Positions 3 to 54,717 of a DNA stretch of 58,511 nucleotides are shown piece by piece. The position numbers and the translations under genes are program-made. The notes below the pieces were generated by a model that was not told the origin of the DNA, ran no database searches, and worked only from the letters and a program-made list of their open reading frames with translations. Every line of letters begins with the position of its first letter. The stretch's first letter is position 1. This DNA is from Candidatus Poseidoniaceae archaeon (GTDB lineage: Archaea > Thermoplasmatota > Poseidoniia > Poseidoniales > Poseidoniaceae), in contig CBFIIS010000004.1 in assembly GCA_965662715.1 (NCBI GenBank), positions 1 through 58,511 of the forward strand, given 5' to 3'.

Positions 3-500
3 ATGGTGATTCAGAAAGAATGGGTGGATGAAGAAAAGCGTTGGTTTCACCCAATCCTCACGGATTTCAAGAGAAAAACCCAGCCGATTATACGCTATCG
101 ACTCAATGACATCCTCGTAGCATCACAACACCAATGCAAATGCGGTGACGCAAGGCAATCAATCGAGGCAGTCATGGGTCGCCAAGACGATGTCTTCTAC
201 CTCCAGAAGGAAAATGAAGAGGGCTATGAGAAGATTGTCCCCGACTTCATTCGCAGAGCAGTGATGCAAATGCATCCTGACATCACTGCCTTCTGTGCCA
301 TTCAGAAATCCGCTGAAACCATCGAGGTTCAACTCCTCCCAGAGGGCTTGAAGGACTGTTCTATGCATGGCTTTGAATCATTGTGGGCGTCAAAAAAGGT
401 CAAAGCTGCGAGCATCAATTTGGTCGCCTACACACATGTTCCTTCAACCACGAAACTACGAAGGATTCAACGAACCTTCGAACCGGCAGAATCCCTTTAG
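3..500 (+). CDS. C-terminal part of an adenylate-forming (PaaK / coenzyme F390 synthetase-like) enzyme; the 5' end lies outside the window
   Basis: The ORF is open to the left window edge. The motif RYRLNDIL..C.CG....IEAVMGRQDDVF resembles the RYxxGD...GRxDD hinge and C-terminal subdomain of phenylacetate-CoA-ligase-type ANL enzymes. Confidence 0.5.
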   Translation: MVIQKEWVDEEKRWFHPILTDFKRKTQPIIRYRLNDILVASQHQCKCGDARQSIEAVMGRQDDVFYLQKENEEGYEKIVPDFIRRAVMQMHPDITAFCAIQKSAETIEVQLLPEGLKDCSMHGFESLWASKKVKAASINLVAYTHVPSTTKLRRIQRTFEPAESL

Positions 501-522
501 GGGTTCACAGTTACTTCCCGAC

Positions 523-1011
523 ATGGAAGATTGTGTCTGGCTTAGGTCGATGCTCGCTTCAGAATTGGAGGTTCGCCCACCAAGGAGCGAGCGAAAAGAA
601 AAACAGGCTCTTGCTGGTTTTTGCACGACAATTCACGACAATGGTAGCCTCATTGCCTTCGCAGAAATGAGAAAAGTTGGTTCTCATGTAGAGATTTCAA
701 CAGTTCTTGTTGACCCAGCCCATCGTGGCCGTGGCATCGGAAAAAACCTCATTCGAACTTCCGTTGAGCAGATCGAAGGTCCTCTCGTACTGTGTTGCAC
801 GAAAAACCCAGCAATGGCAAAGGTGCTCCAATCGCTTGGCTTTACAGCCGTTGGTTGGCCGGGAATTTCTACAGCGATTGGCCTTGCAATCAACACCATT
901 GGGCGTTTACTATCGATGCTCATCCGTTTTGAATTCAAGCGCATATGGATCCAAGGCAAAGGTATTCTCGCCTATGAGCGCTATGTGTTTGAAAACACTG
1001 AGAAACAGTGA
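523..1011 (+). CDS. GNAT-family N-acetyltransferase
   Basis: Acetyl-CoA binding motif VLVDPAHRGRGIGKNLI (R/QxxGxG). I prefer the ATG at 523 (MEDCVWL...) because the 367 start adds a non-protein-like extension that overlaps the upstream gene. Confidence 0.7.
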   Translation: MEDCVWLRSMLASELEVRPPRSERKEKQALAGFCTTIHDNGSLIAFAEMRKVGSHVEISTVLVDPAHRGRGIGKNLIRTSVEQIEGPLVLCCTKNPAMAKVLQSLGFTAVGWPGISTAIGLAINTIGRLLSMLIRFEFKRIWIQGKGILAYERYVFENTEKQ

Positions 1012-1079
1012 CACTTGCCGCCCTCATGCATTGCTTTCGCTCATGCATGCCAAACATGGCTGGTGTAAACTCGCCCTGC

Positions 1080-4000
1080 TTACTGCTGTGATTGTGCATA
1101 CTGGGCCGCATATTGCTGTGCATACTGAGCCGCTGTTGCTTCATCATAGCCTTGTGAAACGAATTGCTGGTAGTACTGTTGGTACACCGCGTTATCCATT
1201 GCAGGTGCCGCTGCTGCCGGCGCTGCTGCACCTGCTGCTTGCGCTGCATATTGTTGGGCATAAGTACGAGCCGTTTCCTCAGGGTATCCCTGGGCGATCA
1301 GTTGCTGAACGTATTGCTCAGTTGCATCGAGTTGTGCGGAGCCATAACCTGCGGAGCTTGCTGCGAAGTCCTTGATGGTATCATCGCCACCTGCGCCGCC
1401 CTTCCTTAGGAAGACCAAGGTCAAGATGATCACGACAAGGAGAGCAGCAATTCCGATACCGATGGTCGTGGCATCGAGACCGCTGCTTGTACCGTCGGAA
1501 TCGCCAGATTGAGCAGGTGCAGCCCATTCTCCGTTCTCGAAGGTCCAAGCGCCACTCCACTCACATTCATTGTCAGCGTTGAGGATGAATTCTCCTCCTG
1601 CTGCAAGTGCTTCGGCGTCTGCCTCAAGCCCTTGACATGCTGGTAGTTGGATCTCAATCCACTTGATGGTCACCCATCGTTCATCATCGCCTTCGTAGAT
1701 CTTGATGAAGATACGTTGACTTTGGGACTTGTTGGTGTACTTACCGTCCAACGAAAGGGTGAGGTCGAATGTTTCAGTGTCACCGATCTTTTCGGTACGG
1801 TCCCATTCACCAGCGAGTCCAAGGTTGTACTTGTCCACAGCGCTGGCTTCGAAGTCTGTCTCAACGAAAGCCGCTTCGACATAGACATCACCATTTTCTG
1901 CACCCGAAAGGACAGTTCCCGAGATGGTCACGGTATCGGTGTCAACTCGAGAAGCGTTGAGTGAAGCATCGAGTTGGACCACAGGTTCTTCGTCACCGAA
2001 GCCATCTGGTACAACAACGAAGTACATTCGATACTTCTCCGAGAATTTACCTGCCTTGTCGTAGACGATCAATTCTATTCTGATTTGGTTCTCAGTGGTG
2101 CCGCTTGGGTCAACAGTCACGTTTCGGAAGGTGTAAGCCCATGCGCCGTCACTGGCAGCGTTTTGCTCGAAGGTGTGGCCGTCGAGGCTGAAGGAGTCAT
2201 CGCCGTATGGAGCGTCAAACAAGACCTTCCATTCATAGGATTCAATTCCACTGCCTTCAAGTGCATCCAAGTCGGTTGAATTGCTGGCATCGAAGTGAAT
2301 GGTCACTTCACCATCTTCATCGAGGATGATTCGATTCACTGACCACTCGGTGTTGGAAACTGTCTTGGTTCCTACATATTCCACGAGGTCTGTGTAATCA
2401 TCACGCATGTCGATCATTGCTTCAGCGGTTGGCCGGTATTCGTCAGCATAGACATCATTGGTTTCCACAGTCACTTCGATGACACGGGAGTGGCCAGCAT
2501 CGTCGTGAAGCATGAGGGTGATGGTCCATTGTTCGCCCTGAGCACAACCTGTTGCCGAGGAAAGATCAATCTTACAGAAGTTCATGACTGGCATTGTTTC
2601 TGTGGTGTGACCGGTCATTCCAGTCGCCATGGTTGATCCGTCCCACGAAGTTGGTCCAGAAACAATCCAGTCGGTGTGGAGGGTCTCGGTTGTGGTTGTG
2701 GTGTAGGAGAACGTCAAGTCGGCGTCACTCTTCATGTAGCGCAACTCGTATCCACCTGTGCTTGGGTTGATTCCTGGAATTTGGTCGTTGATTTTCAGGT
2801 CCAATCCGTTTCCGAGTGTACCAAACCCTTCTGGGTAAGGTGTGACTTGGTAGCTGAGCATGTTTCCAAGCAATGGTAGCGTAGCACTGTCAGCACGTTC
2901 GGAGTGGGTTGAAACGTCCATTGTGGAGACGATCATACCACCAGAGTAATAGCTGCACACACCAAGGATTGTGTCTTGGATGTCATCAGCATCACGAATC
3001 AACCGCTGGAAATAGCCGCCGTCTTCCATGTATCCATTGCAGGTCACAGGGACGTTGTTTGCGCTGACTGACTTGGTGTTCAGTACCGCTTGAGCCACGG
3101 TTGAATCCGCATCAAATCCTTGGAAGGCGTTGATGTCAACATTGTCCATCAATGGGTGGTATGGGTCGGCGAAATCAGTTCCAGAGAAATCAATTCGAGA
3201 CTCTGGAGTGTTTCGGCTTTGGACATCAAGTCCGAACGGCAGTCGTCCATTGAGGCCTTGGTCTACACCGTAGATTTGGCTTCCTTGTGGCCCGAGGTGA
3301 GCCTGGATTGTACCACCTGCGGACATGAAGCCCTCAAGTGTGGTTCGGTGAGCAGTTGATCCCAACTTCTGGTAATAGCCACGTCCACCGTTCTCAATGT
3401 CCTTTGCTGCGATGTCATCTTGCCAAGGCAGAACAATCTTGTCGTAGTGAGTGAACCAGCCTGCATCGAGGTACTCATCCCAATCGTTGATGGTGTATTG
3501 AGTATAGGACATGTTCAAGATGTTCAGATCTTCCTTGATGGCGTTGGTTCGTACAGAGGTGTCTGAAAGAATAGCGACATCCACATGGTCTGCGAAGGTT
3601 GCATGGAAGTATCGAACGTTTCCAGAGGCGGCTCCACTTGAGAGTTCGGCATCAAAGCTGATGTTGTAGGTGTGGCCGTCCATCCAGCCGTTCCATGGGG
3701 TGAATGTCACCTCAATCTTCTGATGCGAATCAAGAGACTGCGATGGTCCTGCAGTCGTGGTGTGAGCCATGCTACCAGCAGTCTCGTCGTAGATGTTCAT
3801 GTTGAACACATAGTCGCCAGCAAGCACACCGTTGGTGGCTTGAAGGGCCCAGTCGTGGGTGTAAGAACTGTCAATAGGCATCACACACTCGAGAATTTGG
3901 TCATTCAAACACGAAAGCGTGTTCGGCTTGCCCAAGGTGATGTCAACGGATTCAACATTGAAGATCACACGCTCGATGTTGTTTGACGTCGAAATTTCTG

Positions 4001-33445: not shown

Positions 33446-35080
33446 TCATTGGACTACGTTTTGGGTTCCACAAATTGGACAGAAACGCCAATATGGATCT
33501 AATCCAATACCACAGCCACGGCACATAACCCCTGAGCGAATCGTTGGTTGAACCGATGGCATAGTTGGGTGTGGTTGGTTCCATTGATGCGTTGGTTGCT
33601 GATTCCAACCTTGCTGTTGATTCCAGCCCTGCTGTTGTTGAGGTTGCTGTTGATTCCAGCCTTGTTGGGGTTGTTGTTGATTCCAGCCTTGCTGTTGTTG
33701 AGGTTGTTGGGGTTGTTGAGGTGGTTGCTGTTGTTGCGCTGGTTGACTCAATGGCTTACGAATTGGCGCTACTGGACGTGGAAGAGATGCTGCTTTTTCA
33801 GCTGCAGGAGACGCCATAAATTCGGACAAAGAAACACTACCATCTCCGTCTGTATCCGCCTCCGCATGAAGAGTTGTGGCTTCTTCGATGCTAGTGCCTG
33901 TAGCAACTGCTAATTCTTCAACAGAAAGTTGCTCACTTCCATCCGTGTCCGCTGCAATGAAATGTTCAGCTGCACTGGTGAATAATTCCTCTTCTGTGAC
34001 TGGCATTTCCAAAGGGGATGCTTTTGGCTCAGGCGAGGATTCTGCGATTGGTTCGGGTTCAGGCTGGGTTGGTAACGGCTCTGGTTCCGGTTCAGGAACA
34101 ATTTCTGGTTCCGGCTCAGGCTCGGGAACAATTTCTGGCTCCTCGATTTGGACAGGTTCAGATACCTTGACTTCTTCTTGAAGTCCAAGATCAAAGGCAC
34201 CTGCAAAGGCGTCTTGAGTGGCCTTCGCGACTTGCTTTTCGTTGGTTGTATCGAGAACATCCTCGACCACTGGTTCATTCACCACTGGTGGAAGTTCGAC
34301 TTTATCCGGGACTGATTCATTCACCACTGGTGGAAGTTCGACATGATCAGCGACTGGTTCTGCTGTTGCCCCCGGAAGCGGCACGGACTTTTCCGGCGTT
34401 GTTGTGCGTGGAATACTTGCTTCTGGGGTCGAAGGAGTTGGTGCAGGGGTTGGAGCAGATGGCTTTGGTACAGCTTGAACACTTGCTGAGGCTGCAGTTT
34501 GGCTTGCAAGGGTTGGAATTGGCAAGGCATGGCCTGCGACATCCAGCGCTGCCTCGAGTTCGTCTGCGACAGCCAAAAGCGATGAGGTGTTCGCATCAGG
34601 GTCTGCAATGAATGATTCGATGCCGTTGAGGTATCGTGAAACTTCGCCTTGCCCACCAGTGGCATGAGCAATGGCTAACAATTTGAGGATCTTCATAGGG
34701 TCAGCAAGGTTCGAAAGTTTGGTCATCTCGTCTGCACTGATCGAAGGAGCATTTCCAGAGGATTCCCCAGAGGAATCTGGGAGGCCAAGATAATTCAGCA
34801 ACGGATCAGGCATAGTCATGATGCCCAAATGGCCTGCAACAAGGTAGTAGATTTCTCCACCCTCACATTGTATTCGTTCGCTTGCGGCATTAAAATCAAA
34901 TTCACCCGGCAAAAGCACAATATCAGAAAGCACTTCGAAAAATTTCTCCATGGCTTCCAGGCGTTCCATTGCCATGAGTGTATGAACCATGTCCGATGAT
35001 TCTGTGATGCCAAAGTAGGCTGCGGCTGCGTCAACTTCAATGCCATCGGGCATTGATTCTCCAGGCAATTCATCGACCAT
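33446..35080 (-). CDS. Low-complexity protein: folded N-domain, Pro/Glu repeats, EF-hand pair, Q/N-rich GWNQQ repeats and a C-terminal zinc ribbon
   Basis: DHVELPPVVNESVPDKVELPPVVNEPV; EPEIVPEPEPEPEIVPEPEPEP; EF-hand loops DTDGSEQLSVEEL and DTDGDGSVSLSEF; QQGWNQQQPQQGWNQQQPQQQQGWNQQQGWNQQ; CRGCG...x11...CPICG. Confidence 0.7.
   Translation of the reverse strand: MVDELPGESMPDGIEVDAAAAYFGITESSDMVHTLMAMERLEAMEKFFEVLSDIVLLPGEFDFNAASERIQCEGGEIYYLVAGHLGIMTMPDPLLNYLGLPDSSGESSGNAPSISADEMTKLSNLADPMKILKLLAIAHATGGQGEVSRYLNGIESFIADPDANTSSLLAVADELEAALDVAGHALPIPTLASQTAASASVQAVPKPSAPTPAPTPSTPEASIPRTTTPEKSVPLPGATAEPVADHVELPPVVNESVPDKVELPPVVNEPVVEDVLDTTNEKQVAKATQDAFAGAFDLGLQEEVKVSEPVQIEEPEIVPEPEPEPEIVPEPEPEPLPTQPEPEPIAESSPEPKASPLEMPVTEEELFTSAAEHFIAADTDGSEQLSVEELAVATGTSIEEATTLHAEADTDGDGSVSLSEFMASPAAEKAASLPRPVAPIRKPLSQPAQQQQPPQQPQQPQQQQGWNQQQPQQGWNQQQPQQQQGWNQQQGWNQQPTHQWNQPHPTMPSVQPTIRSGVMCRGCGIGLDPYWRFCPICGTQNVVQ
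33566..33748 (-). repeat. In-frame imperfect tandem repeats encoding the Q-rich (GWNQQQPQQ)n tract
   Basis: On the plus strand the unit ttgattccagcc(c/t)tg(c/t)tg... recurs at least three times. Translation on the minus strand gives GWNQQ repeats. Confidence 0.85.
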
Positions 35081-35161
35081 GATTCAACCGCCTACGCCCT
35101 GCCCACCTGTGTTTGGTTCTTGAGGATAATCCCCTCGTTTAGTCGAGAAATCATCATTCAA

Positions 35162-38100
35162 TCATCGACTCCTACCGAGGTCGTAAATCGCACGAGATTG
35201 CGGTGCTGACCAACCTGTCTCTTGTAATTGCATCATAATGGTTCGTTCTTTATCTCCGTCATCAATAGCGGTTCGTACCCAATCTGCAGCAGACTCTCGA
35301 TCATCGGCTTGCCAGTCTTCAAAGATACTCAAGTCTACCTTGATTTTTGCCTTTCGAACCTTCGCAGAGCCTTCATCTTCTGCGCTCTCTTCTGTGCTAA
35401 CTTTGCTTGCAACTACCTTTGCAGCCGGCACCTTACTTGGTACAGAGCGGCCTCGAGCAGGCCCAGAAGGAGGCTTTGATTGAGGTGGACCAGCGCGTGG
35501 CCCTCGACCTGGTGGGCCCCCACTGGGTTTGTTTGGCGCAGCACCAGTCGGTCCTCGTGATTTCGAACGTGGAGATGGTGTCGGATTTTGCCTTGATGTG
35601 TTGGTTGTGGTGGTTGAACGAGAGGTATTGAATGACGAAGTAAACGAACCATAGTCGTCGTCATCATCCCAATCGTCGTCATCATCATCATCGTAGTCAA
35701 ATTCATCACTTCGGAACAAACGAACAATCACTGCAAAGAGAACAAGAATACCGATCAAACCGCCAATCCCTGCCAGAATGGCGACACCGGTGCTCATACC
35801 AAACAAGCCTTCCGAAGAATCATCGTCTGTTGACACAGCGATTGGACAACCGTCACCATACCCTCCATCAGCACCTGCTGGTTCATCAGGACAGTTGTCA
35901 TCGTAGTCGGCAACCCCGTCACCATCACCATCGCTTTGTGTTGGGTCGCATCCATCTGAATCTACGTATGTTTTGTACGCCGGTATTGTATCTGGACAAA
36001 GATCAGGGTTGGTACCCGATGCATTGTCACCATAACCATCCCTGTCTCTGTCTTCCCACTGGGTTGGGTTGCCTGCAAGTCCAACAGGTTCAAACAAATC
36101 TCGGTAGCCATCACCATCATCGATGCATCCGAGGAAGTCGATGTACGAAGTGCCGTTTTCAATTGGACAATCGTCGGCATCGTTGCCTTCGATATTATCG
36201 CCATAACCATCGCCGTCTTGGTCGAACCATTGAGTTGGGTCGGTGGGGAAGGCGTCACCTGCTTGGTTTTCATGAAGCCCAGATGTTGAATTGATTGTGT
36301 AAGTGTAGGCTCCTTTGTAGCCATCGCCATCAAGATCTTGGTCAAGTGCAGTTTCATCTGTGCACCCTGTTGAATCAACTGGGAAACCTGTTGGAGTGCT
36401 CGGGCATTGGTCATCAGCATCGCTTACACCATCGTCATCCGTGTCAAGTTGAGCAGTGGAACAACCATTTGCATCGACTTCGGTTTCAAGCGTCAAAGGA
36501 CACAAGTCATCTGGATCGAACACGCCATCACCATCAGAGTCTGTTTCCCGTTGAGCTGCACTGCACCCATTGGCATCGACTTCATCTTGGTATTCGGTCT
36601 GTGGACACTGATCCATGTCATTCATAACACCATCTTGGTCTTCATCGAGTTGATTTTCAGCGCATCCTGCTTGGTTGACCGTGAGCCCTTCGTCGGTGTT
36701 TGGGCACGTGTCCTGTTCATTGGAAACAAAATCTCCATCGTCATCAGTGTCATCAATGAATCGACAACCAATACCGGTTTCGCCATTCGTTGGAACAGTG
36801 CCTTCGAGAACCCCAGCAACTGTGGGGCATTCATCTGCTTGGAAGCCATCTGGGTTGTCGCCGAACCCATCACTATCGAAATCGAGCCATTGGGTTGGTT
36901 CAAGTGGGAAAGCATCGGAGGAATCTTCCCACCCATCGCCATCCAAATCTGGGCAACCGAACACAGGATTGGTTGAGTTCCCCCATACGCCAGGGCAACC
37001 ATCGAGTTCCAACCCCGCCCCGTTATTGGTCAAGTCTTCATCTGAAAGGTCGTAGAATGAAGTCCATCGATCAGGGTAGCCATCGCTATCGTTGTCAACC
37101 GCTGCTGCGATGTTATCTGGGAACATATCTGGATCTGTAGCGCCAAGTGAGTTGTTGTCACCATAACCATCACCATCTGAATCCGTCCACTGTGTCGGGT
37201 CAAGCGGCCACATATCAGCACCCATTGACTCGTTCCATTCAAGGAACGTACCAATGCCAGACGGGTCGGATGAGCCATCATTATCGGTATCTAAGCAACC
37301 ATTACGGTCTCGCCATGAGGCACCCCAATTCCAAGGACATGCGTCGCCAGTCACGGTGTCTGATTCGTTATCGCCCCAGCCATCACCATCGTAATCAGCG
37401 TATTGTGAAGGATTGAATGGGAACAAATCGCCATCGTTACTGTTTGGATCAAGTGGCGTAGCACAACAATCTGGCCCAGAATTGTCGCCATAGCCATCAC
37501 CATCAGAATCTTTGGCTTGCTTCCAATTCAGAATGAACTCATCGCCGTCATAGTAGGAGACGTCGTTGTCCGACCAACCGTCTTGATCGTCATCTCGACA
37601 ACCGAGTCGCCCCAGCCAAGAACTGCCTGAAGCGTCTGTACATCCATCATCAGTGTCAGCATAACCATCGTAATCGTAGTCAGGGCACCCGAAGGTGTAG
37701 AAGGAAGAGGTCGCTGCAACAGAGGTACAACTGTCAGCCATTGGCCCATCAGGGTTGTCACCGTAATTGTCACCGTCACTGTCACTCCATTGATTACCAA
37801 GCGATGGCAAGTCATCAACGAGGTCAAAGACAAGGTCTCTGTCTGTATCTTGGTAGATCCGCAGGACACTCACGTCATCGAGGTCATCGTCCCAAAGTCC
37901 GAGATGGATTGTACCATTGCTGTCAACTTGAGCGTTGGTTTGGCTGCCTACGGTTTTGTAACCAAAAGCCAGCGTTGACCAGGCCGTGCTGTTGTGCATT
38001 GCCGATTCTTTCGCAATTGCATTCCAAGTCAAATCCTTTCCAGAACCAGTGCTTGTCAAGAGGAGGTAGTGATCATCCATCACCACAAGGTCCCAAGCAC

Positions 38101-41100
38101 CATCCAAAGCCGATGTTGGTTGTGTGGCGAACGCCGTCCATTCACTGATGTTTGTGCGGGTGTAGAGCGAGGGCGTGGACATGTCACTTCGAACCGCAAG
38201 GGTTGGTTCACTTCCCCCGACAAGGTCGAGGTTGTACTGGCCAAGGCTCCCTAAGGGTTGATGAAGCGTTGCGCTTGTCCAATTGCTATCAGTGATGTTT
38301 CGTTCGTAAACCGAAAGAGAACCCGTCGAGGTGAGAACTGCAGCGAGGATGGTGCCATCATCTGCAACAGCAAGACGTATGTCAGAGGACAGGTCGGTAA
38401 GACCAGTAATGTTGTGAATTTCGGTGGAGGTTGAATTGATCACCCACAAGGCGAGGTTGGCATCAACGCCGTCATCGTTGATGGCAAGCACCCCTAGGGA
38501 ACCATCGTGCAAGTATGCAGCAGATTGCTGTTGTGAAACCACCGACATGAACTCGCCAGAAGCAAGCGCTGAAGGGTATTCATAGGTCCATGTCGATTCA
38601 CCGTCTGCCTGACGAGCGAGCTGAAGAGAGTCATTTGTTGCATCTCTGTAGACAAGGACTGTTTCATGATTTGTTGATTCGAGGCCTCGAGCCATCACAG
38701 ACACTGGACCATCGAGCACGAGTTGCGAGCGAACGAGCGAAGTGGTCCATCCGGTTGTTGATTCGATGGATGTGAAGAGTTGGTTTGAACCGATGGAGGC
38801 AAAGGCAAGACGTTGTTGTCCAGATGCATCCAATGTCATGCCCAGATGCTCACCAAATTGACCTGTGCTGACAATTGATTGTTCGACGGCTGTATGGCCA
38901 ACCGCTGTTCGAACCGTCAAGCCGTTTTCCCCATCAACTTGGTAGATGACAGGACGGCCAGAGGCTGTGGTGGTGAAGGCATACTTGTTGGATTGATTGC
39001 TGCTTTCAATCACCATGGTGTCGCTCCAAACGCCTGCTGGTGTGGCATCATCGACATGTTCAATGAAATGTGAAGCATTGTTGGCAAACGTCACAAACAT
39101 GCTTGTTTCTCCACGGGCCGAAGTGCTGAGATCAAGTTGTGTGAGGCTGGAGGTGTAAGCGAAGGAGGAAGATTCCCAATCCCTTTCAGAGTGGACCTGG
39201 TAAACGATGGTTGGCGAGGTTGTCGTTGTGTCTCGACAACTGAGGACAATCTCACTTAGACCATCGCCGTCCAAGTCTCCAAGTGTGGCAGCAATAAGGC
39301 CAATGTTGTCGCCAGTTTGACCTGTTGCGAGCAATTCCCAATCTGAGCGAAGTCCGATTGAAGAGCCGAGAATGAGTTCGACTTGACCGCTCTTTCCGGG
39401 GTTGGCTTGCATGATCAGCACGTCATCATAGCCGTCTTCATTGACATCGCCGGCTGGTTCAAAAGTTCGACCAAGCACGGCATTTGCAACACCTGACTCG
39501 AGTGCATAATCGGGCTCTGCTGAAGTGATCCCTCCCGCTGTGCCATAATACGCCCAAATCTTGCCGCTGCGGTATCCGCTCCCGTTGAAGGGTTCTCCAA
39601 ACATGAAATCATCATAGCCATCGGCGTTGACGTCACCAAGGTAATTCAGCGACCAGCCAAGCAGTTTTCCTTGGAGGTTTGACTGAATGATTTGGTCACT
39701 TGTGCCGTTGTAACCCGTGGACTGACCAAAGAAAATTTCAATCGCTGAGTAGCCAAGTGGATTGTCGAAACTGCCCGTATTGGCGACCAGTAAGTCACTC
39801 ATGCCATCCCCATTGAGGTCACCGTTCGCTGCAATGGTTTGACCAAAGCGTGGCCCATCGGTGGACTGAGTGATGTTTCGGACAAAGTCAAGTCCTGATG
39901 CGTTGCCACTGTAAATGATGACTTTTCCTTTGTGTTGAATGGCATTTGTGACCTGTTGAGTATGCCGATATGCCACAGCGACCAAATCGGCCATTGAATC
40001 CCCATTCATGGTTTGTGACGCAGTAAGTGCCCAGCCAAGCGATGTGTTATCCTCGCCAGTCGCATTCCACCACGATATGTTCTCCAAACCTGATGCACTC
40101 CCTAGGTGAACCACAACTTGGCCAGGAGCTCCTGTGAAGTTGCCTTCTGTATCATTCCATCCAGGCGAACCAATGGCAACATCTGCGTAACCATCACCGT
40201 TGAAATCAGCCACAGAAAGTCCATGGCCAAACAAAGCGTCATCCGTTTCACCAGCAAGGGTGACATCAGCAGCCAGTGCAGGGCCGCTTGCTGAACCATA
40301 GTGAATAAGAACACGGCCTCTTTGCAAACCGTCACCATCGTACTCAGGTTCTGCAATCACAAGATCGTCAAATCCATCCCCGTTCAAATCACCCATGTTC
40401 ATCGAACCTTCTTCGATACCCTGAGCACCAATGATGGTTGTCGAGGGTGCAGGATTGATTCGGCCTGTCTCTTGACCTGACAAACTGCGAAGCAACTGCA
40501 GTGTGATGTTGTTGTCCTGGCCGACTGTGGTCACAATTTGTTCCAAATTATTTCCGTCGAGCCCCATCCCGATGTGGGGAACAACATTTGAGTCACGTAG
40601 TAACACTCTGTGGTCATATGTTGTCCCGTCGACGCGAATTAGACGTATCTCTCCTTCATCTGGTACGGCGTAAGCGATATGGACGACTTCATCTGTATCA
40701 ACTGCGAGTTCAATATCTCTGCTCACAGGTCCTGAATCAAGCAATGCATGTGACCAACGTGTGCCACTGAATGTAATCTCCCACAATGAGCCATTGGTGT
40801 CCCTGAACACACCCCATTCGAGATCGTTTTGTCGCAGGCCAAGTCGGAAATCTGTAGGGTTGACGTCTTCCACGATTGTCCGTGTCAACCACGTAGTTTC
40901 GAAGTACACTTGACCAGCATAGGCCACCCTTGCCACCTTGATATCAGGTCCATCAGCATACATCATGTACGGACGAGCATTTTCACCGATCGCCAAGGAG
41001 CAATCGACAAGGTGTGTTTCTGGGGTTGGCGCAACGGTGTCAACAAGGGCATCATTCCAACTTCCATTGGAAGATTGCGTTGCGTAGTGCACTTCTCCTT

Positions 41101-41455
41101 CTGCGGTGGTCCAGCAAAGATTGACATTTTCTCTGCGAGCAAGCACAAGGTCTGGTGTACCCGGTGTTGAGTTTTCAAACAAGGAATCAGATGATTCAAT
41201 CCAAGTGTTGAGGCCAGATTCTTCCCGAACCACACCTTGAACCAAACCATCAAAATCGATTTGAGTTCCAGAGAAATCGTGTCCATATCCACTTGAAAAA
41301 GGCACATGCGCACTTGTTTGCAAAACATCTTGCTGCTCATTTAGTGTCGTTGTGGACCAATCATGAGTTGCCATTGGACTCATTGACTGAATCAAAAATA
41401 GGACCAAAATTGTCAGCGCAATTGTAGGAAATGAGACACTGCGCTTTGCGGCCAT
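35162..41455 (-). CDS. Giant (2097 aa) integrin-like surface protein
   Basis: Single 6.3-kb ORF with an ATG start. Signal (FPTIALTILVLFLIQSMSPMA), beta-rich W-containing repeats, FG-GAP propeller repeats, about 670 aa of TSP3-like repeats, TM GVAILAGIGGLIGILVLFAVIV (nt about 35723-35788), then a 186-aa tail (DEFDYDDDDDDDWDDDDDYG, a Pro/Arg/Lys-rich stretch, and a helical end). Confidence 0.85.
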   Translation of the reverse strand: MAAKRSVSFPTIALTILVLFLIQSMSPMATHDWSTTTLNEQQDVLQTSAHVPFSSGYGHDFSGTQIDFDGLVQGVVREESGLNTWIESSDSLFENSTPGTPDLVLARRENVNLCWTTAEGEVHYATQSSNGSWNDALVDTVAPTPETHLVDCSLAIGENARPYMMYADGPDIKVARVAYAGQVYFETTWLTRTIVEDVNPTDFRLGLRQNDLEWGVFRDTNGSLWEITFSGTRWSHALLDSGPVSRDIELAVDTDEVVHIAYAVPDEGEIRLIRVDGTTYDHRVLLRDSNVVPHIGMGLDGNNLEQIVTTVGQDNNITLQLLRSLSGQETGRINPAPSTTIIGAQGIEEGSMNMGDLNGDGFDDLVIAEPEYDGDGLQRGRVLIHYGSASGPALAADVTLAGETDDALFGHGLSVADFNGDGYADVAIGSPGWNDTEGNFTGAPGQVVVHLGSASGLENISWWNATGEDNTSLGWALTASQTMNGDSMADLVAVAYRHTQQVTNAIQHKGKVIIYSGNASGLDFVRNITQSTDGPRFGQTIAANGDLNGDGMSDLLVANTGSFDNPLGYSAIEIFFGQSTGYNGTSDQIIQSNLQGKLLGWSLNYLGDVNADGYDDFMFGEPFNGSGYRSGKIWAYYGTAGGITSAEPDYALESGVANAVLGRTFEPAGDVNEDGYDDVLIMQANPGKSGQVELILGSSIGLRSDWELLATGQTGDNIGLIAATLGDLDGDGLSEIVLSCRDTTTTSPTIVYQVHSERDWESSSFAYTSSLTQLDLSTSARGETSMFVTFANNASHFIEHVDDATPAGVWSDTMVIESSNQSNKYAFTTTASGRPVIYQVDGENGLTVRTAVGHTAVEQSIVSTGQFGEHLGMTLDASGQQRLAFASIGSNQLFTSIESTTGWTTSLVRSQLVLDGPVSVMARGLESTNHETVLVYRDATNDSLQLARQADGESTWTYEYPSALASGEFMSVVSQQQSAAYLHDGSLGVLAINDDGVDANLALWVINSTSTEIHNITGLTDLSSDIRLAVADDGTILAAVLTSTGSLSVYERNITDSNWTSATLHQPLGSLGQYNLDLVGGSEPTLAVRSDMSTPSLYTRTNISEWTAFATQPTSALDGAWDLVVMDDHYLLLTSTGSGKDLTWNAIAKESAMHNSTAWSTLAFGYKTVGSQTNAQVDSNGTIHLGLWDDDLDDVSVLRIYQDTDRDLVFDLVDDLPSLGNQWSDSDGDNYGDNPDGPMADSCTSVAATSSFYTFGCPDYDYDGYADTDDGCTDASGSSWLGRLGCRDDDQDGWSDNDVSYYDGDEFILNWKQAKDSDGDGYGDNSGPDCCATPLDPNSNDGDLFPFNPSQYADYDGDGWGDNESDTVTGDACPWNWGASWRDRNGCLDTDNDGSSDPSGIGTFLEWNESMGADMWPLDPTQWTDSDGDGYGDNNSLGATDPDMFPDNIAAAVDNDSDGYPDRWTSFYDLSDEDLTNNGAGLELDGCPGVWGNSTNPVFGCPDLDGDGWEDSSDAFPLEPTQWLDFDSDGFGDNPDGFQADECPTVAGVLEGTVPTNGETGIGCRFIDDTDDDGDFVSNEQDTCPNTDEGLTVNQAGCAENQLDEDQDGVMNDMDQCPQTEYQDEVDANGCSAAQRETDSDGDGVFDPDDLCPLTLETEVDANGCSTAQLDTDDDGVSDADDQCPSTPTGFPVDSTGCTDETALDQDLDGDGYKGAYTYTINSTSGLHENQAGDAFPTDPTQWFDQDGDGYGDNIEGNDADDCPIENGTSYIDFLGCIDDGDGYRDLFEPVGLAGNPTQWEDRDRDGYGDNASGTNPDLCPDTIPAYKTYVDSDGCDPTQSDGDGDGVADYDDNCPDEPAGADGGYGDGCPIAVSTDDDSSEGLFGMSTGVAILAGIGGLIGILVLFAVIVRLFRSDEFDYDDDDDDDWDDDDDYGSFTSSFNTSRSTTTTNTSRQNPTPSPRSKSRGPTGAAPNKPSGGPPGRGPRAGPPQSKPPSGPARGRSVPSKVPAAKVVASKVSTEESAEDEGSAKVRKAKIKVDLSIFEDWQADDRESAADWVRTAIDDGDKERTIMMQLQETGWSAPQSRAIYDLGRSR
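35846..37849 (-). repeat. Thrombospondin type-3-like Ca-binding repeat array (approximate bounds)
   Basis: Dozens of Dx[DN]xDGxxDxxD units: QWSDSDGDNYGDN, DSDGDGYGDN, DYDGDGWGDN, DTDNDGSSD, DLDGDGWEDSSD, DFDSDGFGDN, DEDQDGVMNDMDQCP, DSDGDGVFDPDDLCP, DTDDDGVSDADDQCP, DQDGDGYGDN, DGDGDGVADYDDNCP. Confidence 0.8.
39221..40423 (-). repeat. FG-GAP (integrin alpha-type) repeats, at least 6 units (approximate bounds)
   Basis: MGDLNGDGFDDLVIAEP, VADFNGDGYADVAIGSPG, NGDSMADLVAVA, NGDLNGDGMSDLLVAN, LGDVNADGYDDFMFGEP, AGDVNEDGYDDVLI, LGDLDGDGLSEIVLS. Each is spaced by G.V.....G stretches. Confidence 0.75.
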
Positions 41456-43082: not shown

Positions 43083-44402
43083 TCACCACTTATGCCAAAT
43101 GCGTAGGTCTTGGTCCCACCAATCCATTGAACCGTCAGGTTGTTGTCGCCAGAGGGTTCCACTGTCATCTGTTGTTGTTGGCATCCCTTCTGGATCTGGA
43201 GAACCGTCTGGGAGAATTGTTGGGGTTGGACCTAATGACCTAATGCCAGTCATCTCCTCTTCATCTTTGACCCGTACAAGCATGAAAAACACAATGATGG
43301 CAACGATGAAGCCCAAAGCGCCAATCGAGTACCACCCTACGGACTCAGTTTCCGTATCTTCACCAAAGGAACGGCTTGGAAGGGTTTCTGCTTCCTCTTT
43401 GGTTAAATCTTCTCCGGGTTGCCTGATCAAATTAAGACCGTGAACGGTTCGAATCTGCTCATTGTTAATCACTTCAAGACTGATGAGGTGGACTCCTGCT
43501 GGAAGAACTGAACAATCGTAAGAATTGCTGTCAGTGCCGTCCAATTGTTGGCCTTGAACCGACCAGATTTTGTCAAAGGTTGAGAAATCCACACCCGCCA
43601 TATTTGGAACCATAGTGACCATACAAGGCGTATCTGTCGTGTTTCCGTCACCACGTACAGTCAGAGAGAATGCAGGGGCAGGCCTGTTGTGAATCGTGAT
43701 GTTAAGCCAAGATTCGGTGGTTTGGCCCAAATCGTTTCGATACGCTTCCTTCAGCACGTATTCACCAGCGGGCCAATGTGAACAATTGAGTGAAGTTTGA
43801 TTGTCAAGCACGGTAAAAGGTGCTCCGGAGAAGGTTCGAACCCCTGCAGCGGCATAGCGAGGTCCTGTTTCATCCGCAAAGATTCGGTCTATGGTGCAGG
43901 CATCTCCAGTCTCAATCCATGCAGGGGCTTCAAGGTCCAGAATAATTTGAGGCGTCTTCAATGCAGGCCGAAGAACATAGGTTGGCAATTGAATCGTCGT
44001 GATGGTTTCGCCATCTTGATTGACAATCTCGAGTCGAAGAGCGTGTTCACCTTGGGCCCATGCATCATAGATGATGCTGGCGTTTGATTGACCACTAAAT
44101 GACATTGTGCGGCTGTCATGAACTTCTCTGTCTTTGTGAACACCATACAAACGCAGTTCGATGTTGGTGTATTCATTGGTCGTGTTCATGATCACTACGA
44201 CACGAATGGCATCAGCATCACCGTCTTGGTTGAGGTCGAGGGTGTCGTTTCGTAGAGCAATCAAAGCCAATCCTTCAGCTTCGAGTGCTTCATCAGATGA
44301 GCTCGGTTCCGCCGATGCAGGTCCAGTCATGCCGATGGGTGCCATCATGGCCAAGCAAAGAATGCTCAGCATGAGAAGGCTGTTTCGATGTGCTTCAATC
44401 AT
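43083..44402 (-). CDS. Secreted Ig-like-fold surface protein (439 aa) with a C-terminal TM anchor and a Trp-rich cytoplasmic tail
   Basis: Signal peptide LLMLSILCLAMMAPIGMTGPASA, a beta-rich body with NxS/T sequons, TM WYSIGALGFIVAIIVFFMLV, and tail ...PDGSMDWWDQDLRIWHKW. Its start overlaps the upstream stop (ATGATTGA). Confidence 0.7.
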   Translation of the reverse strand: MIEAHRNSLLMLSILCLAMMAPIGMTGPASAEPSSSDEALEAEGLALIALRNDTLDLNQDGDADAIRVVVIMNTTNEYTNIELRLYGVHKDREVHDSRTMSFSGQSNASIIYDAWAQGEHALRLEIVNQDGETITTIQLPTYVLRPALKTPQIILDLEAPAWIETGDACTIDRIFADETGPRYAAAGVRTFSGAPFTVLDNQTSLNCSHWPAGEYVLKEAYRNDLGQTTESWLNITIHNRPAPAFSLTVRGDGNTTDTPCMVTMVPNMAGVDFSTFDKIWSVQGQQLDGTDSNSYDCSVLPAGVHLISLEVINNEQIRTVHGLNLIRQPGEDLTKEEAETLPSRSFGEDTETESVGWYSIGALGFIVAIIVFFMLVRVKDEEEMTGIRSLGPTPTILPDGSPDPEGMPTTTDDSGTLWRQQPDGSMDWWDQDLRIWHKW

Positions 44403-49828: not shown

Positions 49829-52800
49829 TCAGACGTTGTCCCAATCAAGGTCAACACCAGTCAGTGGTTTTGCTTCCTCAGGTTCACCTTTGATCTCGGC
49901 TTCGACTTCTGTCGCTGCTTCAGTGACGCCTCCTTCCAATGAAATTGGGGTTGCCGAATCCAATGGTTCAACAGGTTTCACTGACCTGAATGCATCCCAT
50001 GATTCAATCATATCCAATTCTGCAAACCGTGCTCTGCGACGCGATGCAATCATGGCAACAGCAACAAGTAACACCACGAAAGCGCCAATAGCGCCGACAA
50101 GCACCATGGTTCGACCATCGCTTGGAGGATCGGAAATGTCAAGGGTTATACTGATAACATCAATGTTGGCATTTTCACCTTCCCCATCGGTAGCGATGAC
50201 CTTCATGTTTGGCCGGCCTGCACCATCAGGCAGCAATTCCAAATTGCCTTCCCACACACCATCACCGTCTGCGTCTGTGAGGTTCAATTGCCACTCCTGC
50301 TGGTCATACTTCACAGTCACACGGACGTCTTTTGTCGTTCCATCGGCGTCTGTCATAGTAACCGAGACCGCCAATGTGTTCAATTCGCCTGCAATCAAGG
50401 TCGTTGGAGTATAGACAAGGTTTGACAATCGGGGGAGGCTGGATTGAACAGTGACGTTCGCAAACACCTCATCTTCGCCCCCTCGGCTGTCTCGAATATA
50501 AAGCGAAATCATGTGTTCGCCGGGCATAAGACTGACCTCATCCATGCTGCGCGTTGACAAGATGGAATAGGTACCATTCATTGCCCAATGGCGCCATTCA
50601 CGGGCGACCATATCATCATCAGCATCTGTCGAATCTTCACTGAGCATAAGTACACCACCTGCTTCAATCGAATCTCGATTCGACGGCGTGATCATGGTTG
50701 CAATTGGATCTGATTGACCCACAGTAATAGTGAGGAATGTGCTCGAAGACAAACCTGTTTCATCTACCAAGGTCACCTCCATCGTGTGGGTTCCTGCCGG
50801 AAGATAACTGATGTGAGTCTCACCAGGATTGACGGCATCAAGGAGGGGCTCGCTCAACAAATCACTGCGCACAGTGAGTGTGAAGTTGTCGTCATCGTAA
50901 TCTACAGATTGGACAGCATTCCAGAAGATAGGGTCTGAGGAACGGAAAATCTCCTCGTCCAACGGGGAGACCAAATCGAGGACGGGAGGTGATGTAGTCA
51001 CTTCAACGGTTCGAGAAACAAGAACTGGTTCATGGATACCATCATCCAAACTCAACGTGATGGTGTGGGTCCCTGCCGACAGTCTTCCATCAAAAATCAG
51101 GTAATCCTCGCCCTCTGGTGTGAGTCTGCCATCAAGGTCGCTTGACCATACCACAACGAGGTATTCTGAGCCCGCAAAGGGCTGGGACTCTGCACAATGC
51201 CACGAGCCGTTGACTGGGAATGTGAAACACGCAGCATCATAGTCGCCTGAGCCGTTTGCGGAGAACCATATTGTTTCTGACGAGGTGTAGACTTGGGTAT
51301 CAAGAGGTGTCTCAATGATGCTCTTTGGCATTGAATTATCAACTGAGATCAGCGTCGAGTTCACCTTTGTGGAATTGATATGCTCAGGACGATCATCAAC
51401 GACACGCATCTCAATGCTGTGAACACCACGTGAAAGATGACCGGTCCACATCGTGGCACCCGATTCGTTTGACCAAGCAAGTTGTCCATCGAGGCTGGAC
51501 CACCATTCAATTTCGAGAACATCACCTTCAGGATCGACGGTTGCCGAGCCGTCAAAGGTCACTTCGTCTTCACTCGCATTGCCGCTTCTCAGAACCTCAA
51601 ACACTGGCTCTGGTACTTCATTGAACAGTTCAACGGGAATCGCAAATGAAGAGGGTGAATTGAGGCCATCGGATGCATAGATCGTCAAATCAAACACCGA
51701 TGGAACAGGTTCAGCCATTGTCAAATTCATCCAAAGTTCACTGGGGCACGAGGTTGCTGGGTCACTCGGTCCAAGGTAGGAACGTTCCAACCAGCACGTC
51801 ATTGGGTCACCCTCGGGATCAAAGGTTTGCGACAGATCAATTCGAACACTTTCTGTTCGAGCAATGATGAGTTCAGACCAAGGAGAGAGAGCAGGTTGGA
51901 CATCGATCACCAAAACGGGGGCTTGATTGACCAATTCGATGGTGCGTTGGAGCGAAGTGCAATGATCATCATCGCAGACCTCAAGGGTGATGATGTGTAT
52001 TCCATCGGAGAGCGAACACGACCATGTATCATTGGTGTTGACAGTGAAAGGAACCCCACCACTTGGTCCGTTTGGTTCTTGCCAAGTACCGGTGCACGAG
52101 TCGACAAGATCGCCATCAAGAGAACTGGACCAAGTCCACAAAAGCGGGTCGTTATCAAGGTCCCAAGAATCACTCGCATTGAAGAAGATTGCACCCTGTG
52201 AAGGGAAGACGTCGCCATCAAATGGCGTATCCCAGATAGCAAACGGTGGTTGGTTTTGCAGCGGCAAGACACAATTGATGAAACGATCTTGGTCCAAGGT
52301 GATGCTTGTGCTGTTTGAGACGCTGTCATAGCCACATGACACATCGATAATGTTGTGGCTTGATGCGCCTGTACTTGTCCATTGTTGGCCAATAAAATTA
52401 GGCAATTCGAGATAGCCAAGGTCATTTGTCAAAGATTCAAGTGAGGGCTCAAAAGCATCGAAACTTGCGTTGACATAGGCGTTTGGAATGCCGTTGTTGA
52501 CGGTGTTGACCACCCATACCGTGATGTCCCAAGCGACATCAATTGTAGCACCGGAAGCAATGGTTGCTTTGGTTAAATCAACACCGCTTGGGCGGTGGAG
52601 ATGGAGGGATGATGTGCTGTCCAATTGAAGGGCTTGTGCACCGGTGGCATCGGTCAATGAGGACCAATTCACATGGCTGTTCTGGAACACAATGGAACCT
52701 GTACAATCTGCAGTGATGGTGTTGCCGTACCCTGTCAAAGCGGTGTGATCAGTCAATTCAAGGCACGACGTGTCACCTGAAATCTGGGTTCTGCTCAAGC

Positions 52801-54643: not shown

Positions 54644-54717
54644 ACCTTGAGGCGCTCGCGAACGCACTTCAAGGGTTCGGCTTGATGCATGCCATGAGCA
54701 TCAGGAGAATCCATGTC

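Follow-up and report, generated by a model that had tools for sequence, protein, structure and literature searches.

The α subunits of integrins carry a headpiece formed by a seven-blade FG-GAP propeller with DxDxDG loops, and are type I membrane proteins with one transmembrane (TM) helix and a short cytoplasmic tail. In the part of Chouhan 2011 (PMC3192720) drawn on here, the calcium motif occupies three or four blades of the integrin α propeller, and bacterial integrin-type seven-blade propellers have a calcium site in every or nearly every blade and no TM helix. According to the portion used of Pereira and Lupas 2021 (PMC8023676), the FG-GAP/VCBS supercluster has members in bacteria, archaea and eukaryotes alike; because prokaryotic FG-GAP propellers with calcium motifs exist, the fold is not a eukaryotic invention. 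Among archaea, the Poseidoniales (Marine Group II, MG-II) are reported in passages of Rinke et al. 2019 (PMC6461757) to outnumber all other planktonic archaea in ocean surface waters, and ‘thrombospondin genes’ widespread in the order were taken there as a sign of adhesion. Here we describe a gene at 35162..41455 on the minus strand of a 58,511-nucleotide stretch of DNA (the window; contig CBFIIS010000004.1, assembly GCA_965662715.1) from a Candidatus Poseidoniaceae archaeon. Its product, termed the giant protein, is encoded by a nearly single-copy gene of the Poseidoniales; it carries an FG-GAP propeller of the integrin α type, homologous to integrin α heads, and ends in a C-terminal domain that constitutes a small protein family matching no known one. 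The main text of PMC6461757, within the portion covered, mentions neither FG-GAP, integrin nor the tail and describes neither the giant gene nor its propellers. Within the parts covered of the literature on Poseidoniales/Marine Group II and on archaeal FG-GAP/integrin propellers, we found no published description of the giant protein or its tail.

An earlier interpretation of the window made from its letters (the sequence-only reading) had proposed that this open reading frame (ORF) encodes a signal peptide, β-repeats, FG-GAP repeats, a second β-repeat block, calcium-binding repeats, one TM helix and a cytoplasmic tail. The ORF list and translation confirm the frame of 2,097 residues and the order of its parts. 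We regard the product as a candidate type I membrane glycoprotein whose head, as modelled, would comprise three seven-blade propellers, one of them the FG-GAP propeller with calcium loops in six blades. The features of the gene, all on the minus strand, are as follows.

35162..41455, minus: the whole giant gene, 2,097 residues, candidate type I membrane protein; ORF list and translation, no interruption
41369..41455, minus: signal-peptide-like N-terminus, residues 1–29 (KR, hydrophobic core, SPMA), read from the sequence
40466..41278, minus: putative propeller A, part 1 (about five blades), residues ~60–330; four-strand blades in the predicted model, without a Pfam family
39173..40465, minus: seven-blade FG-GAP propeller of the integrin α type, residues 331–761; Pfam, structure and profile matches
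38891..39172, minus: two additional blades that apparently complete propeller A, residues 762–855; predicted strands at 760–854 and alignment ranges
37856..38890, minus: predicted propeller B (about seven blades), residues 856–1200; modelled blades and the range of the 5mum_A match, without a Pfam family
35816..37855, minus: calcium-binding repeat stalk, residues 1201–1880; motif and Cys counts, with about four canonical TSP3-type repeats at 1560–1700
35723..35809, minus: single TM helix, residues 1883–1911, followed by RLFR; hydrophobic run, simple pattern
35645..35722, minus: juxtamembrane acidic/aromatic block, residues 1912–1937; net charge −13 in the query
35333..35644, minus: Ser/Thr-rich, then Pro/Gly/Arg-rich linker, residues 1938–2041, with the basic patch KVRKAKIK at its end; net charge +13 in the query
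35165..35332, minus: C-terminal three-helix domain, residues 2042–2097; helices at 2047–2065, 2070–2080 and 2084–2096

The family was delineated by its tail. A search with residues 1880–2097 returned 143 proteins at E ≤ 1e-3 among 1,356 candidates, and 116 of the 120 matches listed combine a length of 2,048–2,186 residues with FG-GAP. Where source names are given they are Poseidoniales, Poseidoniaceae or ‘Euryarchaeota archaeon’; ‘VCBS repeat-containing protein’ is one source's name for one orthologue. With one genome taken per species, 234 stretches fitted the peptide patterns and a relative was encoded in 185, of which 80 loci were kept; all 80 are titled Poseidoniales-type metagenome-assembled genomes (MAGs), and the first MG-II chromosome, CM001443, is among them. 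A profile of the tail domain (last 75 residues) found it in 182 of 301 genomes of the order: in 138/149 of the window's own family (here f1), 0/2 of f2 and 43/149 of f3, which we infer to be the MGIIb family. These genomes are incomplete MAGs, in which ‘not found’ does not equal ‘absent’, and related genomes are not independent. Where present, the domain mostly has a single copy in a genome, encoded within a frame of some 2,100 codons, and the window's own genome has one copy. For alignment we used 117 proteins of 2,000–2,200 residues, of which 52 were kept at <80% identity; the median identity of orthologues to the query is 47%.

The head was modelled with AlphaFold2 (AF2) as residues 1–1200 from an alignment of 42 orthologues. 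The model is all-β, organised in four-strand blades, with a mean predicted local distance difference test score (pLDDT) of 83.7; the two β-repeat blocks that the sequence-only reading had placed on either side of the FG-GAP part are thus real. At the N-terminus, MAAKRSVSFPTIALTILVLFLIQSMSPMA combines a basic n-region with a hydrophobic core and reads as signal-peptide-like, a pattern kept at the starts of orthologues; AF2 places a helix at residues 11–25 with low pLDDT. Pfam FG-GAP matches the whole protein with an E-value of 6e-15, with FG-GAP and FG-GAP_3 (PF01839, PF13517) above cut-off at 55.1 and 40.6 bits, and matches residues 346–770 with an E-value of 5e-36 in 6 stretches, which upholds the earlier count of at least six repeats. 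Six Dx[DN]x[DN]G loops start at residues 356, 417, 546, 608, 670 and 727, and the 129 residues between the starts at 417 and 546 point to a seventh blade that lacks the motif. The calcium-loop residues of this propeller are invariant in the 42 orthologues. Residues 331–761 superpose on integrin α heads, such as those of αM, αIIb, α5 and αV (PDB 7usl, 9e8a, 4wk2, 9ind), with Z-scores of 32.5–35.6 and a root-mean-square deviation (rmsd) of 3.0–3.5 Å over 368–389 aligned residues at 15–20% identity, whereas other seven-blade propellers score below the integrin α subunits, at Z ≤ 30. By sequence profile against the PDB, the best relatives are likewise integrins αV, α5 and αIIb (E 7e-18 to 1e-15).

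Despite this homology, the giant protein is not an integrin α subunit; its propeller belongs to the FG-GAP/integrin-α propeller family. The seven-blade propeller with DxDxDG loops, the type I topology, the single TM helix and a cytoplasmic tail are common to both, yet the calcium motif, found in three or four blades in integrin α (PMC3192720, in part), is found in six here. The integrin thigh and calf legs are absent: behind residue 761 come further blades and then DxDxDG repeats, with no Pfam leg domain, and the few integrin structure rows that extend past the propeller reach only to residue 806. After the TM helix the sequence reads RLFRSDEFDYDD, without the GFFKR motif, which is missing from all 50 orthologue tails. 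No match to Integrin_beta (PF00362) was found in the organism's own 85%-complete genome, a search in which the control genomes could not give a signal either. The integrin α tail is short, whereas that of the giant protein spans 186 residues and ends in a folded domain. What the Poseidoniales family has beyond the bacterial propellers covered in PMC3192720 (in part) is a signal peptide, a second and a third propeller, a calcium stalk and, with the TM helix, a cytoplasmic domain that is conserved.

No Pfam family matches the blocks that flank the FG-GAP part, and residues ~60–330 form four-strand blades at pLDDT 75–92. In a wide structure search (VIA), the PL42 lyase 7esk_A aligned over model range 80..855 (332 residues, Z 27.1) and the PL25 ulvan lyase 5uam_A over 87..852 (315 residues, Z 25.2), both skipping the FG-GAP part. 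Because these two seven-blade matches span such ranges yet leave out the FG-GAP part, the model suggests that the N-terminal block (residues ~60–330) and residues 762–855 make up one seven-blade propeller, A, into which the integrin-type propeller would be inserted. This topology is read from alignment ranges in a predicted model; a propeller placed within another would set the giant protein apart from integrin α. Propeller B (residues 856–1200) matched the glycoside hydrolase BACINT_00347 (5mum_A) over range 856..1200 (325 residues, Z 26.0, rmsd 3.2 Å), and in the ESM Atlas it gave a weak BNR_4 lead, at a 24% share of one cluster. Since Z-scores of 25–27 are common between any seven-blade propellers, the enzyme identities of the matches to A and B are a lead only.

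Behind the head, residues 1201–1880 form a stalk rich in Asp (21%), with 17 Dx[DN]x[DN]G motifs by a relaxed pattern and 8 by a strict one, and 26 Cys residues mostly paired 13–16 residues apart. It is the best conserved long region of the protein. Asp-rich DxDxDGxxDxxD repeats and paired Cys are shared with prokaryotic TSP3-repeat surface proteins (5wtl; the NCBIfam families MtsC, TraB and PA1041 anchor), and the stalk has both contiguous DxDxDGxxDxxD calcium motifs and the Cys pairs. Residues 1603–1700 match the OmpA-family chain 5wtl_A in the PDB (E 2.4e-7), which we take to carry TSP3-like repeats, and NCBIfam families with such repeats give partial, sub-threshold matches. Pfam TSP_3 (PF02412) falls below its gathering threshold, at 16.1 against 25 bits (E 0.009, 5 stretches), and among the 120 listed orthologues 4 have it on record. 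The 17 repeats mostly follow the pattern PxQWxDxDGDGxGDN, a variant that does not rise above the Pfam cut-off. Profiles back the earlier label ‘TSP3-type’ in part only. The ectodomain contains 31 N-x-S/T sequons, compared with 16.8 ± 3.5 in shuffled sequences; all 29 Cys residues precede the TM helix and none lies in the tail, while 2 sequons lie behind the helix. This pattern fits an outside, glycosylated and disulfide-bonded ectodomain. The C-terminus does not fit an archaeosortase-type anchor (PGF-CTERM and kin), as 186 residues follow the TM helix and no such NCBIfam model matched at E ≤ 0.01.

The single TM helix (residues 1883–1911) was detected by a simple pattern in 50 of the 52 non-redundant orthologues, the 2 missed being dropped from the listing. 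In all 50 the tail follows a common plan: TM helix, Arg/Lys, poly-Asp/Glu with Trp/Phe/Tyr, a Ser/Thr-rich segment, a Pro/Gly/Arg-rich stretch, a basic patch and the terminal domain. GPSRGPPG-type repeats occur in the Pro/Gly/Arg-rich stretch, including that of distant orthologues. The three tail parts quoted in the sequence-only reading are present letter for letter in the 186 residues behind one TM helix; the basic patch KVRKAKIK (2032–2039), directly before the helical end, is a fourth. Charge statistics were compiled for 114 orthologues (3 of the 117 were dropped because the TM helix was missed). The acidic block averages 29.5 residues, about 4 of them aromatic, and a net charge of −14.4 ± 1.9; the linker averages 103 residues, net +13.8 ± 3.8, with 32% Pro plus Gly; and the C-terminal domain has a net charge of −5.4 ± 1.8. 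Covariation in charge between the acidic and the basic block is weak, with a Spearman coefficient of −0.31 (p 0.03) for 50 sequences of the <80%-identity subset and −0.13 (p 0.15) for all sequences, both uncorrected for relatedness.

Conservation along the chain is uneven. Mean identity to the query is 0.22–0.51 in the three propellers, 0.53–0.73 in the calcium stalk, 0.33–0.42 in the TM helix, acidic block and linker, and 0.67 in the last 47 residues, where entropy (0.89) is the lowest of any 50-residue window. The sequence-only reading had named beforehand, as grounds for its own refutation, a tail lacking or unconserved in orthologues; the 143 matches and the conservation of the extreme C-terminus show the opposite.

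The terminal domain is modelled by AF2 as three helices, with a core pLDDT of 94–97. Thirty diverse domain ends, whose 75 aligned residues are 44–83% identical to those of the query, share 18 invariant columns, including D-R, W, Q-L-Q, G-W and Q-S-R-A-I. Searches against known families were uniformly unproductive. In Pfam and NCBIfam, at most one of the 30 members matched any one family, at E > 0.03; a sequence-profile search of the PDB gave no match; Foldseek against the PDB gave nothing at E ≤ 0.001 (best E 1.8); and the ESM Atlas gave unnamed clusters only, at scores ≤ 0.89. The wide VIA fold search peaked at Z 5.4, for spidroin C-terminal domains, a cullin piece and designed bundles, which is helical-bundle noise; RecX, a homeodomain and Pex14 appeared at Z 3.6–4.7. 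Helix-turn-helix and UBA-like three-helix families were considered as kin of the domain, and none gave a significant profile or fold match. A DNA-binding interpretation of the helix-turn-helix-like ‘LQETGWSAPQSRAI’ was rejected, the domain being acidic and having no significant helix-turn-helix match. A profile search of 1.84 billion representatives retrieved 67 proteins only. The full-length matches P0172, P0148, P0153, P0186 and P0166 carry FG-GAP in a Pfam scan, and short matches such as P0155, P0156, P0162 and P0167 show the same tail plan; the weak matches P0173, P0175, P0176 and P0178 are unrelated repeat proteins. P0176 and P0178, built of tandem ‘W..l..G.s.ee....L...GY’ modules, were considered as relatives on a profile E-value of about 2e-5 and set aside as a lead at an hhalign probability of only 13.6%.

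The domain also ends other proteins. In one genus of family f3 (g17), 4 of 8 genomes contain two tail-domain matches each. One carrier is a 1,464-codon Peptidase_S8/CARDB/NEW3 protein (locus L097, 3429–7820, minus strand), in which the domain starts 12 residues after a TM helix; the other is an 846-codon α/β hydrolase (locus L098, 813–3350, plus strand), with about 33 basic residues before the domain. Both lack the acidic block and the Pro-rich tract. The three-helix domain is thus portable, a cytoplasmic end-piece found on different surface proteins with a C-terminal anchor. Because an S8 protease and an α/β hydrolase of one genus carry the same domain, a signalling role specific to adhesion is disfavoured, and positioning or retention of surface proteins is favoured over integrin-like signalling. 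Two proposals of the sequence-only reading can be set against these results. The ‘eukaryotic adhesion-receptor logic’ that it saw survives in the integrin-α-type propeller and does not go beyond analogy, given the missing thigh/calf and GFFKR and the domain's presence on a protease and a hydrolase. The acidic and basic blocks might form a switch, as it proposed; their charges are conserved in the 114 orthologues and covary weakly, and the protease and hydrolase versions have neither block. New in this analysis are these two carriers, the proposed insertion topology, the genus-level counts and the loci, described below, that keep the downstream gene without the giant gene.

We consider it probable that the giant protein is a surface protein with a three-propeller head, a calcium stalk and a tail domain that docks to an internal partner. 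The stalk of about 680 residues with DxDxDG repeats, stiffened by calcium and disulfides, would hold the head off the membrane, and the head would probably bind a ligand carried by particles, by algal polymers or by other cells. Inside the cell, the three-helix domain of 56 residues would sit at the end of a flexible tether, some 130 residues long, that may be compacted or extended by its opposite charge blocks. The domain could then serve as a docking tag that attaches surface proteins to a conserved partner in the cell interior or at the membrane face, or to itself; such docking would serve positioning, clustering or retention. A more specific proposal makes the domain a portable docking tag, an inside-cell counterpart of dockerin, that gathers surface proteins on one scaffold at the membrane face or inside the cell: the giant binder in most genera, the S8 protease and the hydrolase in a single genus. 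The downstream neighbour would belong to this scaffold in most lineages and would render docking dependent on calcium. We hold this to be unlikely; if true, it would mean organised patches for capturing and digesting particles.

Bacterial polar landmark proteins of the FimV/HubP type offer a similar layout: a domain outside the cell and a single TM helix are followed in the cytoplasm by a long, very acidic region, and a small, conserved helical motif at the C-terminus serves to dock partners. The likeness is one of layout only, a functional analogy, as the domain of life and the ectodomain differ. The FimV TPR3 structure (4mal) was among the top Foldseek rows for the tail domain without being significant (E 2.3), and TIGR03504 matched 1 of 30 members at E 0.087.

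Downstream of the giant gene lies a gene on the same strand whose product is a candidate partner in most lineages, though not an obligatory one.

35081..35161, minus: spacer to the next same-strand gene, 81 nucleotides (nt), with the conserved block GCATCATCCTCAAGAAC
33446..35080, minus: downstream neighbour gene, 544 residues, an EF-hand/zinc-ribbon protein

The neighbour comprises a conserved N-domain of about 195 residues without a known family, a Pro/Glu linker, an EF-hand pair (Pfam EF-hand_7, E 3.5e-6), Gln/Trp repeats of the QQQGWNQQ type, the conserved motif LPRPVAPVRKPL, and a C-terminal CxxC...CxxC zinc ribbon, to which Pfam matches were weak. A homologue lies directly downstream, on the same strand and 60–100 nt away, in 38 of 38 loci with full flanks. 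The N-domain was found in 184 of the 301 genomes, and the giant-tail domain and the neighbour are concordant in 22 of 26 genera (both in 16, neither in 6, the latter representing 98 genomes). Within family f3, 6 genera have both genes and 6 other genera, those with the 98 genomes, have neither; the two are adjacent in two f3 genomes, G263 (locus L099) and G299. In f3 and in genera g9, g11 and g13, the neighbour comes without the EF-hand region. In the spacer, GCATCATCCTCAAGAAC lies about 45 nt before the neighbour's start; of 15 relatives aligned, 12 share this block, which may act as a promoter or regulatory element, and no T-run terminator is visible in 35081–35161. Complex prediction with the whole neighbour and the tail domain scored 0.00 in two runs without controls and is evidence neither way.

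Several observations weigh against the docking interpretation or parts of it. The propeller-in-propeller arrangement derives from the ranges of 2 of the 50 listed rows together with a predicted model. The tail domain is without an informative structural neighbour (best VIA Z 5.4), for which reason docking is argued from conservation and position only, and a small acidic domain of this kind could equally self-associate. M29, M32, TPK and Lnb-like genes are likewise present in 38 of 38 loci, and because the entire neighbourhood is syntenic, adjacency of the giant gene and its neighbour says little by itself. Genera g9, g11 and g13 keep the neighbour, while the tail domain was not found in any of their 7 genomes; in their loci (L093–L096) the neighbour adjoins the TPK gene, with no giant gene between, and g17 has the tail domain without the neighbour. 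The pairing is thus not obligatory, since each gene occurs without the other. The six genera without both genes may form one clade, which would reduce them to a single loss. Lastly, RNA-library contigs (four libraries, four studies) cover parts of the giant gene, with four near-identical pieces of 151–215 nt in one run and, in another, pieces measuring 1,046 and 1,661 nt that come from a relative (about 93% identity); the contigs are compatible with transcription and not proof of it, and carry no information on its level or on co-transcription. Among the contig pieces listed, none bridges the spacer.

The locus in g9, g11 and g13 is of separate interest as either a natural deletion or a pre-insertion state, and could date the origin of the giant gene.

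The homology of the propeller to integrin α heads raises the prospect of a two-way receptor, in which ligand binding would be signalled through the TM helix, the charge blocks would open and close, and the neighbour would serve the tail as an adaptor dependent on calcium, in the manner of CIB1 with αIIb. Beyond the propeller, the conserved tail with its balanced opposite charge blocks, the EF-hand pair of a neighbour that follows the giant gene in every full locus, and the agreement of genus patterns in 22/26 all speak for this idea. It has to contend, however, with the missing thigh/calf, GFFKR and β subunit, with the weak charge covariation, and with a tail domain that sits on a protease and a hydrolase without charge blocks and without the neighbour; the neighbour, for its part, occurs without the giant gene in g9, g11 and g13 and lacks the EF-hand region both there and in f3. 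We find such a receptor improbable, and think much the same of a structural role in the envelope, by which the giant protein would be the main surface glycoprotein in place of an S-layer or glycocalyx, with the tail domain anchoring the coat. In favour of a coat protein are a gene that almost every genome of the family has, mostly in one copy and of remarkably constant length, a product with enriched sequons and a long, rigid-looking stalk, and the absence of a described Poseidoniales envelope protein from the titles and abstract openings of the papers listed on S-layers in the group. An essential wall would sit oddly, though, with the lack of a tail-domain match in 98 genomes of six genera, several of them >90% complete, and in g9, g11 and g13, and the window encodes two other giant TM-anchored proteins.

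Another possibility, which we judge very unlikely, gives the leading role to propellers A and B, as kin of lyases and glycosidases acting on algal rhamnose/uronic-acid polymers; the giant protein would be a surface-tethered glycan binder or cleaver, and the FG-GAP propeller and stalk would do no more than display A and B. Among the matches listed, the best for A and B are indeed enzymes, 7esk_A being a rhamnose-glucuronate lyase alongside 5uam_A and 5mum_A, and the portion used of PMC8821943 links Poseidoniales to phytoplankton-derived matter. Yet the Z-scores are typical between seven-blade propellers, WD40 proteins scoring alike on the FG-GAP part, and sequence identity is only 8–12%, with no Pfam match. 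The tail might, finally, have no partner at all: the charge blocks would be topogenic or spacer elements, and the terminal helices would lend stability to very large proteins with a C-terminal anchor or help to insert them into the membrane. No partner turned up, the linker sequence is variable, and the other giant proteins of the window have TM helices and tails of their own kinds. What makes this explanation highly improbable is the domain itself, whose 18 invariant positions in 56 residues, including surface-type Q, S, R and D, exceed what a spacer needs, which was retained on moving to two unrelated enzymes, and which other giant proteins of the same genome lack. Docking of the tail domain to an internal partner is the reading that we retain.

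The window encodes further surface proteins with tails. A second giant protein (1080–7760, minus strand; 2,226 residues) has an N-terminal FG-GAP_3 and a C-terminal TM helix, and its tail contains two ‘Q..[IV].QGY[PD]E.TA..YAQQYAAQ’ repeats; considered as a relative of the three-helix domain, this tail proved unrelated by hhalign. A third TM-anchored giant (49829–54667, minus strand; 1,612 residues) has right-handed β-helix repeats and an acidic cytoplasmic tail. Upstream of the TPK gene, a 439-residue TM protein has a conserved Trp-rich cytoplasmic end, LWRQ.PDG..DWWD (43083–43400, minus strand), seen also in L093–L096 and L099; with the motif present in relatives from three families, this is another surface protein with its own conserved tail.

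For the uncultured Poseidoniales, a hold on particles or algal matter has been argued from gene lists only, and the giant gene, among the largest and best conserved of their surface proteins, provides a concrete handle on the question. For the evolution of integrins, it shows a propeller of the integrin type within a type I membrane protein of archaea whose cytoplasmic end is folded and conserved, a combination lacking in the bacterial examples of 2011. The tail domain is a small family of a new kind that can be expressed and tested without culturing the organism, and its recurrence on a protease and a hydrolase hints at a general means by which surface proteins are organised from within the cell.

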